Shown piece by piece: positions 32,447-32,599 of a stretch of 64,000 bases of DNA; positions within the stretch are counted from its first letter, which is position 1; each line of letters opens with the position of its first letter. Below the pieces are notes generated by a model. That model searched no databases. It was not told the DNA's origin and worked only from the letters and a program-made list of their open reading frames with translations. Made by a program: the position numbers and the translations under genes. This stretch comes from a virus. Taxonomy: Duplodnaviria > Heunggongvirae > Uroviricota > Caudoviricetes. Where the stretch lies: IMG/VR virus record IMGVR_UViG_3300006794_000002; one strand, 5' to 3'.

Positions 32447-32523
32447 TGGTACCTCTCCTGAGATTCGAACTCAGACTGTAGCGTGTTTAAGACGCTGCTC
32501 TCTTCCGATTGGAGTAGAAAGGC
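32447..32523 (-). tRNA. tRNA with anticodon TAA (Leu UUA decoder) but class I (short variable arm) architecture
   Basis: Perfect anticodon stem agcgt/acgct with loop CTTAAAC. 77 nt with no long variable arm. Confidence 0.45.
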
Positions 32524-32524
32524 T

Positions 32525-32599
32525 TGGCGAGTCCTGAGAGGATCGAACTCTCGACTAGTGGTTTAAGGGACCACCGTTCTACCGCTGAACTAAAGACCC
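32525..32599 (-). tRNA. tRNA-Lys (anticodon CTT), C at position 33
   Basis: Acceptor gagtcct/aagaccc pairs fully. Loop CCCTTAA. Confidence 0.45.

Follow-up and report, generated by a model that had tools for sequence, protein, structure and literature searches.

A type I tRNA-Leu(UAA), probably functional, in the tRNA array of an uncultured tailed phage

Can a transfer RNA (tRNA) that carries the anticodon UAA, but has no long variable arm, serve as a leucine tRNA in a bacterial virus? The question is raised by a 77-nt gene at positions 32447-32523 of IMG/VR record IMGVR_UViG_3300006794_000002, in a 64-kb stretch of DNA (the window) that is essentially the complete genome of an uncultured tailed phage. 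An earlier note on this DNA, made from the letters alone, had considered the charging identity of the tRNA unclear since bacterial tRNA-Leu normally needs a type II (long variable) arm, and had pointed out further non-standard tRNAs in the same array. In the present analysis the gene is found to be of a known kind, a type I tRNA-Leu of bacterial type in a phage tRNA array of the usual fast-evolving sort, and its features indicate that it very probably encodes a functional tRNA-Leu(UAA) with an ordinary decoding role. The "non-standard" tRNA therefore requires no exotic explanation.

30313-34453, minus strand: phage tRNA array, 33 tRNAs called by ARAGORN and two aberrant ones
32447-32523, minus strand: type I tRNA-Leu(UAA), 77 nt including the encoded CCA, called by ARAGORN and by Rfam/Infernal

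In the ARAGORN fold the UAA tRNA has an acceptor stem of 7 bp with a G1·U72 pair and a D arm with a 3-bp stem (CUC/GAG) and an 11-nt loop (CAAUCGGAAGA), which is numbered C13 A14 A15 U16 C17 G18 G19 A20 A20a G21 A22. The anticodon arm consists of a perfect 5-bp stem and the loop CUUAAAC, with U33 and the anticodon UAA, and the T arm of a 5-bp stem and the loop UUCGAAU. U8, A9, A73 and an encoded CCA are present as well. The variable loop is only 5 nt long (ACAGU), and U48 is its last base. Infernal with the Rfam tRNA model (RF00005) gave 41.8 bits against a gathering threshold of 29, in the same register as ARAGORN and with no long arm; Rfam scans of the whole 64 kb and of 5 kb had missed the gene solely through their speed filters. 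Both programs thus agree with the perfect anticodon stem, the loop (CTTAAAC as DNA), the length of 77 nt and the short variable arm that the earlier note had given. Folds that would restore U33 in the tRNAs with C33 described below, or provide the UAA tRNA with a long arm, were sought with ARAGORN and Infernal, and none was given. In a type II tRNA the variable arm exceeds 10 nt and folds into a stem-loop; the UAA tRNA has no such arm, whereas two other leucine tRNAs of the array do:

31588-31671, minus strand: type II tRNA-Leu(CAA), 84 nt, G1·U72, A73, called by ARAGORN
32658-32742, minus strand: type II tRNA-Leu(UAG), 85 nt, called by ARAGORN

A suppressor tRNA was considered and rejected, as the anticodon 5'-UAA-3' pairs with the leucine codons UUA and UUG and not with a stop codon.

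According to reviews, leucine identity in E. coli and Aquifex resides in A73, U8-A14, A15-U48, G18G19 with A20a, and the core formed by the D and T loops; the variable arm and the anticodon are not needed, and a minimal E. coli tRNA-Leu without both arms is still charged. The tRNA at 32447-32523 carries this arm-independent set in full: A73, U8-A14, A15-U48, G18G19 in the leucine register and A20a/G21, on a Leu-type D arm that matches the positions given for Aquifex and E. coli. The bases for the tertiary pairs U8-A14 and A15-U48 are in place, from which the three-dimensional pairing is predicted, and the T loop can form G18-U55, G19-C56 and U54-A58. With all arm-independent leucine elements present, the premise that a type II arm is required fails. 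It is also contradicted by Streptomyces coelicolor, whose type I tRNA-Leu(CAA) is leucylated, and by the finding, described below, that this scaffold occurs with leucine anticodons only. The gene merits annotation as tRNA-Leu(UAA), and the phage uses the standard genetic code.

The locus was compared with those of related phages. In L016-L018 the terminase is 71% identical to that of the window, and the modules stand in the same order: ribonucleotide reductase (RNR), Thy1, tRNA array, terminase. The L016 array contains 36 tRNAs in the order of the window. Array gene order is also shared by L261, L262 and L012; of these, L012 (terminase 88% identical) is 1.8 kb long and holds only the array end, and L261 and L262, which were found via RNR, carry the array on contigs that stop just short of the Leu(UAA) position. 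Terminase relatives at 54-69% identity (L001, L002, L006-L011, L013-L015 and L019) have no tRNAs beside the terminase. A search of viral contigs with the exact anticodon-arm pattern gave a single chance match, which is not a tRNA.

The L016 orthologue is likewise a 77-nt tRNA(UAA), located between tRNA-Lys(CUU) and tRNA-Asp. It differs from the window tRNA at 22 of 77 positions, and 18 of these differences make up nine double compensatory changes, which are distributed across all four stems. By comparison, only 2 of the 37 unpaired positions differ, and the D loop, variable loop, T loop, A73 and anticodon are identical. Because the changes are compensatory and the loops are nearly invariant, purifying selection and not pseudogene decay is indicated: the UAA tRNA is conserved under purifying selection in the related phage.

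The L016 array holds a second leucine tRNA of this shape. Its tRNA-Leu(UAG) (positions 6523-6600 of L016) is also type I, with 78 nt, the D loop CAAUUGGCAGA and the variable loop ACAGGU, whereas tRNA-Leu(UAG) at the equivalent position is an 85-nt type II tRNA in the window and in L261. Therefore an arm loss or a gene replacement took place within this phage lineage.

The wider family was searched in IMG/VR with a pattern that combined the Leu-type D loop, any NAR anticodon, a variable loop of 4-7 nt and the T loop, and at least 119 contigs matched. The 121 viral matches kept have a well-paired anticodon stem (at least 4/5 pairs as a pre-filter), with the other three stems unfiltered. The anticodons among these 121 listed matches are CAA (45), UAA (38), UAG (28), GAG (4), AAG (3) and CAG (3); the phenylalanine anticodons GAA and AAA, which the pattern permits, occur in none of the 121. 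At positions that the pattern left free, U8 and A73 are found in 98/98 family members and U48 in 97/98. An alignment of 89 sequences (A1) has 97.8% of its cells paired and double changes in 20/20 pairs, with a covariation score of 1.008 compared to 0.227 after shuffling and 0.11-0.18 after sliding. The commonest 1:72 pair in the family is the G1·U72 seen in the window tRNA. The D arm of the UAA tRNA, with A9 and C13, represents a distinct type I lineage that is present in hundreds of genomes, as opposed to the type II D arm of its neighbours, which has G9 and G13.

In the phage loci of this family the long arm is kept by 51/52 tRNA-Ser and 27/30 tRNA-Tyr, and most tRNA-Leu are without it, a leucine fraction that is biased as the loci were picked for having a type I tRNA-Leu. 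Seryl-tRNA synthetase (SerRS) and bacterial tyrosyl-tRNA synthetase (TyrRS) depend on the long arm. Retention of the arm in Ser and Tyr and its frequent absence in Leu fit the arm dependence of these two enzymes and the arm independence of leucyl-tRNA synthetase (LeuRS).

Cultured phages carry the same type of gene. A blastn search of cultured phages with one family member returned 164 records, 52 of them with a query coverage of 80% or more; for most of the records listed the annotation is tRNA-Leu. Matches include cyanophage P-RSM6, Enterococcus phage EFDG1, Pseudomonas phage ZC03 and Cronobacter phage S13, as well as phages of Streptomyces, Mycobacterium and Erwinia. For phages of Cyanobacteria, Firmicutes and Actinomycetota the assignment comes from matches annotated as tRNA-Leu, and for the Proteobacteria phages S13 and ZC03 it was confirmed directly. 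The T4-like phage S13 has two 77-nt type I leucine tRNAs, UAA and CAA, with U48, and ZC03 has one type I tRNA-Leu(UAA) beside one type II tRNA-Leu(UAG). The S13 tRNA, used as a query against 5,426 complete E. coli genomes, had no counterpart. A full-text literature search retrieved no paper that discusses how type I tRNA-Leu from phages is built; the nearest were those on S. coelicolor and on the mycobacterial tRNA clusters discussed below.

The same pattern matched at least 120 loci in bacterial contigs sampled as one genome per species, and the 119 genomic matches listed with a well-paired anticodon stem have leucine anticodons only. At 54 of the matched bacterial loci, mostly in Actinomycetota, the scaffold is the sole tRNA within 8 kb. 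The genera with such loci include Leucobacter, Agromyces, Sinomonas, Corynebacterium and Mycobacterium, and Streptomyces and Kitasatospora have CAA as the isoacceptor. When 25 Actinomycetota loci were compared, the flanking genes were conserved across genera, with Pfam matches to an ndh-like oxidoreductase and to Ppx/GppA in two groups, which suggests a native chromosomal gene in Actinomycetota. With native UAA and CAA type I genes in several genera, the distribution extends beyond the one S. coelicolor CAA case of the literature examined. At the Actinomycetota loci L146, L158, L177, L208, L212, L237 and others the UAA isoacceptor was observed to be type I (at most 77 nt). The other bacterial loci belong to Cyanobacteria, Acidobacteriota, Planctomycetota and Myxococcota and are arrays with 10-34 tRNAs.

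One of the closest known cases for comparison is the S. coelicolor type I tRNA-Leu(CAA), which has the variable loop ACAGC and is leucylated by the single LeuRS of that organism; in the same study type I leucine tRNAs were called rare in bacteria, and the length of the loop, not its sequence, was found to matter (Fan et al., NAR 2019, PMC6614811). The window tRNA shares with it the 5-nt loop (ACAGU here), U8-A14 and the coexistence with type II leucine isoacceptors. In contrast, the Streptomyces tRNA has the anticodon CAA, is chromosomal and has C48, whereas the window tRNA has UAA, is phage-borne and has U48, so that an E. coli-type A15-U48 pair is possible. A short-loop tRNA-Leu(TAG), together with Ile(TAT) and Arg(TCG) tRNAs, has been described from the tRNA gene clusters of mycobacteria (Behra et al., BMC Evol Biol 2019, PMC6582537). 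These clusters resemble the array studied here in being dense and in containing divergent tRNAs, and a short-loop Leu, Ile(TAT) and Arg(TCG) are all three found in the window. However, they are chromosomal, whereas the array of the window belongs to a 64-kb phage genome, where nucleotide-metabolism genes lie on one side of it and the terminase on the other. The mycobacterial short-loop tRNA-Leu has the anticodon TAG and that of the window UAA; L016 has short-loop tRNAs with both UAA and UAG.

The tRNA-Leu(UAA) of E. coli has a D stem of 3 bp and xAAUYGGNAGA as its D-loop pattern, as has the window tRNA, and G9 and G13 where the latter has A9 and C13. Both share the anticodon, A73, G1·U72, U8-A14, A15-U48, G18G19 and A20a, and they differ in the long variable arm of the E. 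coli molecule. The G1·U72 pair has been noted in the crystal structure of E. coli LeuRS with tRNA-Leu(UAA). The type I leucine tRNAs of the cultured phages S13, ZC03, P-RSM6, EFDG1 and others have the same 77-nt architecture, D loop, A73 and leucine anticodons, but show only about 75-80% sequence likeness and are labelled simply as tRNA-Leu. Animal mitochondrial tRNA-Leu(UUR) is also type I, with the anticodon UAA and an identity that rests on A73 and A14. It differs in its floppy, reduced core and its dedicated LeuRS, the core of the phage tRNA being fully canonical, and it is not charged by S. coelicolor LeuRS (PMC6614811).

From these elements the following course of events is proposed. The array would be transcribed as one or a few precursors, in which host RNase P would cut each 5' end and 3' exonucleases would trim the 1-nt trailer past the encoded CCA. 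The UAA tRNA would then receive leucine from the host LeuRS, an enzyme that does not read the anticodon and, in E. coli-type systems, does not read the long arm either. This enzyme would recognise A73, U8-A14, the A15-U48 Levitt pair, a canonical T loop and the Leu-specific geometry of the D loop, that is, A14 A15 Y16 Y17 G18 G19 N20 A20a G21 A22 on a 3-bp D stem. The charged tRNA would read UUA, and UUG by wobble, as part of an array of about 35 co-oriented tRNAs that would supply an almost complete decoding set during infection.

Several points weigh against a functional tRNA-Leu(UAA) of this kind. The first doubt is enzymatic, and here part of the earlier note's concern stands: neither E. 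coli LeuRS nor one Streptomyces LeuRS charged the S. coelicolor type I tRNA-Leu(CAA) (PMC6614811). Given such differing behaviour of the enzymes, acceptance of a type I tRNA depends on the host LeuRS and is not universal in bacteria. In Aquifex, removal of the arm lowers the affinity. Demand for a UAA isoacceptor is low, as UUA makes up only 3% of the 928 leucine codons counted in the phage, with UUG at 19%; codon demand alone therefore does not explain why the UAA isoacceptor is kept, but the near-complete decoding set of the phage does. Finally, the family search fixed the D loop, so that it shows a link between scaffold and leucine and not the share of type I among all phage tRNA-Leu.

Other explanations of the short arm were weighed against this one. 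Charging with a different amino acid instead of leucine, or deliberately ambiguous charging, with UUA and UUG recoded during infection, might be suspected from the class I scaffold, from A35-A36 and A73, which the tRNA has in common with tRNA-Phe, and from the fact that some LeuRS enzymes reject type I substrates. We regard such recoding as very unlikely. The tRNA has all the arm-independent leucine elements, the Phe anticodon GAA occurs in none of the 240 well-folded scaffold matches listed, and the native Actinomycetota scaffold genes are single-copy UAA or CAA isoacceptors. Moreover, the genes with UUG codons include conserved structural and replication genes, and with UUG at 19% of the leucine codons recoding would be highly damaging. 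That the gene is a decaying pseudogene, a non-functional type II tRNA-Leu with its arm deleted, would agree with the decaying tRNA-Ser(UGA) and tRNA-Tyr(GUA) in the same array (see below), with the rarity of UUA in the phage and with the failure of the default-filter Rfam scans to find it. However, the nine compensatory changes relative to L016 with almost unchanged loops, the intact CCA, A73 and T loop, and the A9/C13 D arm, which belongs to the distinct type I lineage and not to the G9/G13 type II tRNAs of the neighbours, make decay extremely improbable. Bacterial Ro proteins partner with tRNA-like RNAs. A non-translational role, as a decoy or inhibitor of a host enzyme or as a ligand of the Ro60-like TROVE protein of the phage, would fit the position of that gene about 4 kb away and, in relatives, adjacent to the RNR-Thy1-array module, but it too is very unlikely: the anticodon loop, A73 and CCA are under selection, as expected of a decoding tRNA, no Y-RNA-like match was found near the Ro gene, and nothing distinguishes the UAA tRNA from the 34 others in the array.

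A further proposal is compatible with leucine decoding and would be added to it, namely that the armless form was chosen to escape host or competitor factors, tRNA-cleaving or tRNA-modifying defences for example, by which the long arm or another trait of the host's type II tRNA-Leu is recognised, so that leucine decoding would continue when the host leucine tRNAs are depleted. It is suggested by type I leucine tRNAs in phages whose hosts are expected to hold only type II (Cronobacter phage S13 and Pseudomonas phage ZC03), with the S13 tRNA lacking a counterpart in the E. coli genomes searched, by the long arm kept in Ser (51/52) and Tyr (27/30) of the same phage loci, and by the second type I tRNA-Leu(UAG) of L016 where the window has type II, which means that arm loss or gene replacement happened more than once. 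Phage tRNAs can evade or neutralise tRNA-targeting defences according to the literature (eLife 2023), and eukaryotic SLFN11 is cited as cleaving type II tRNAs. On the other hand, the literature examined contains no bacterial nuclease specific for the leucine variable arm, and the bacterial Schlafen studied there cut Lys, Ala, Met and other tRNAs in their anticodon arm. The arm loss restricted to leucine is equally explained by the need of SerRS and TyrRS for the arm, which LeuRS does not share; Actinomycetota carry chromosomal type I tRNA-Leu outside any phage context, and the window itself keeps two type II leucine tRNAs. We therefore consider evasion an unlikely addition to the decoding role.

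The wide distribution of type I tRNA-Leu is more interesting than the single gene. A speculative proposal, to which we give a low probability, is that type I tRNA-Leu is a single lineage that spreads horizontally among Actinomycetota chromosomes, bacterial arrays and very diverse phages, and that would be retained since it is chargeable by many LeuRS enzymes through A15-U48 and invisible to factors that recognise type II. The marks of the proposed lineage are A9, C13, A15-U48, a 5-nt variable loop that ends in U48 (commonly NNAGU) and a frequent G1·U72. If this were true, tolerance of type I tRNAs by LeuRS would be much more widespread than is currently held, Streptomyces and mitochondria being the only cases accepted so far. 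In any case, type I tRNA-Leu is no rarity confined to Streptomyces and mitochondria, contrary to the assumption of the 2019 paper (PMC6614811). The Streptomyces type I tRNA that E. coli LeuRS rejected has C48, and the T4-like Cronobacter phage S13 carries two type I tRNAs with U48. This raises the question of what lets a LeuRS that otherwise sees type II tRNAs charge a phage type I tRNA-Leu with U48, if it does so, and this question of LeuRS recognition is now testable.

The array is bordered by the thymidine kinase gene on one side and by the terminase module on the other. CCA is encoded in all of its tRNAs, many are spaced by only 1-3 nt, and the anticodons jointly span nearly every sense-codon box. 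The ENA contig ERZ27285877 k141_2193779 (64,269 bp) is identical to the window across the 21 kb compared. On the minus strand the phage codes for a large terminase, a portal, an SU10-type major capsid protein, a tail tube and a tape-measure-like protein of 2001 aa, and the window further contains RNR, Thy1, thymidine kinase and a TROVE/Ro60-like protein. No close cultured relative exists in the collection of cultured phages searched, where the terminase reached at most 28% identity and megablast gave no match to the tRNA array. Among the homologues of terminase and RNR no informative taxon name was found as a host clue, except one Gemmatimonadales metagenome-assembled genome at 48% identity, and a comparison of the array with 239 tRNA-bearing loci yielded four weak matches only and no host clue. 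A scan for promoters and terminators found nothing above shuffled expectation in the array and no sigma-70-like promoter; it did place a terminator-like hairpin directly after the last tRNA.

Two members of the array are detected only with relaxed settings:

32233-32320, minus strand: aberrant tRNA-Ser(UGA), relaxed ARAGORN only, Rfam match below threshold
34049-34133, minus strand: aberrant or decaying tRNA-Tyr(GUA), relaxed ARAGORN only

The tRNA-Ser(UGA) has a perfect acceptor stem, G73 and CCA, with an irregular T arm and core, and it is syntenic with an intact tRNA-Ser(UGA) of L016. In the tRNA-Tyr(GUA) the anticodon arm is good, as is the long variable arm, the T loop reads AUCGUUC and pairing in the acceptor stem is poor; intact syntenic counterparts are found in L016 and L261. 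To judge from these defects, the phage may be without a working tRNA-Tyr.

The remaining features that had been pointed out as non-standard concern six other tRNAs:

31472-31546, minus strand: tRNA-Val(GAC), C33, loop UCGACAU, called by ARAGORN
32525-32599, minus strand: tRNA-Lys(CUU), C32, C33, G73, loop CCCUUAA, called by ARAGORN, Rfam 58.9 bits
33638-33714, minus strand: tRNA-Ile(GAU), C33, loop CCGAUAA, A8, 3-bp D stem, 11-nt D loop, called by ARAGORN
33557-33632, minus strand: tRNA-Ile(UAU), loop CUUAUAA, A73, called by ARAGORN, Rfam 59.8 bits
31111-31184, minus strand: tRNA-Thr(CGU), tandem U·U at 4:69 and 5:68, called by ARAGORN
33716-33791, minus strand: tRNA-His(GUG), encoded G-1 (33791), C73, tandem U·U at 4:69 and 5:68

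The C at position 33 that the earlier note had proposed for tRNA-Val(GAC), tRNA-Lys(CTT) and tRNA-Ile(GAT) is borne out by the ARAGORN calls, with no fold that restores U33, and in tRNA-Ile the register is fixed by three orthologues. C33 is out of the ordinary in cells; as a background for arrays, ARAGORN found C33 in 38/968 unique viral tRNAs (3.9%) of the fetched loci and in 54/860 tRNAs (6.3%) of the bacterial loci, which are mostly arrays. At 3.9%, three or more C33 among 33 tRNAs have a binomial P of ~0.14 (hand calculation), which is no significant excess. The L016 orthologue of tRNA-Val(GAC) and the three orthologues of tRNA-Ile(GAU) have U33, and therefore C33 is private to the window phage in both. 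In tRNA-Lys(CUU) both C33 and the unusual G73 are retained in L016 (the tRNA-Lys(UUU) of the same array has A73), and its C33, to go by this comparison, looks like the one case under selection. The tRNA-Ile(GAU) is the most aberrant of the functional-looking members of the array: it has no Rfam tRNA match even in a 251-nt search, yet its A8 and D-arm architecture are kept in three orthologues, with the D loop identical in two and changed by one A-to-G in L261.

The tRNA-Ile(UAU) is real and, as had been said, would read AUA directly; such tRNAs are rare in cells but common in phage arrays, where they occur in 22/116 loci. AUA accounts for 12% of the isoleucine codons of the phage, and orthologues of the tRNA are found in L016, L261 and L262. 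With its canonical cloverleaf and A73 it is a likely AUA decoder without lysidine, for which charging by isoleucyl-tRNA synthetase is predicted. The two adjacent U·U mismatches reported for the acceptor stems of tRNA-Thr(CGT) and tRNA-His also appear in the ARAGORN folds. The tRNA-His encodes the bacterial G-1/C73 signature, and its acceptor stem is identical in L016, whereas the L261 and L262 orthologues have no tandem U·U. In the tRNA-Thr(CGU) of L016, as read from the sequence, the tandem U·U stands at 5:68 and 6:67, shifted by one pair. In the window and L016 these mismatches are tolerated, conserved features and not errors. C33, tRNA-Ile(UAU), tandem U·U and A8 are all typical of fast-evolving phage or cluster arrays and no signs of another genetic code. 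They now have a measured background, with C33 in some 4-6% of phage and array tRNAs and Ile-UAU in roughly a fifth of the phage loci, so that none of these features by itself flags an anomaly.

Some further tRNAs of the array deserve mention. The tRNA-Asp(GUC) at 32368-32445 (minus strand) has U37, the loop CUGUCUA and an irregular variable region of 6-7 nt, and scores 37.2 bits in Rfam. One of two tRNAs with the anticodon CAU, at 30741-30815 (minus strand), has C1-G72, U73 and the loop CUCAUAC, and could be an elongator Met, an Ile2-type or another tRNA; it has orthologues in L016 and L012. The tRNA-Thr(GGU) at 30663-30738 (minus strand) is 100% identical to that at 8751-8826 of L016, whereas most other tRNAs diverge by compensatory changes. 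The window copy has A8 and no Rfam match in the 5-kb scan, and the L012 orthologue differs.

Two small open reading frames (ORFs) on the tRNA strand occupy gaps of the array, at 31783-31854 and 32925-33095 (both minus strand). One of them would encode a hydrophobic peptide of 23 aa, MGILGLVIVIVIVVLAMKACGLF, with GGAGGA upstream, and the other a Cys-rich peptide of 56 aa, MKDYDDYGCGDCCCGF..., the end of which overlaps tRNA-Arg(CCU). About 4 kb from the array, at 38609-40213 (minus strand), lies the gene for the TROVE-domain (Ro60-like) RNA-binding protein of 534 aa. No Y-RNA-like Rfam match was obtained near it (38000-43000), and the order Ro-RNR-Thy1-array is retained in L261 and L262. On the plus strand, the ORF at 49633-50574 combines an ArdC-N domain with a zincin-like metallopeptidase (Pfam E 3e-34 each) and thus resembles the anti-restriction protein ArdC.

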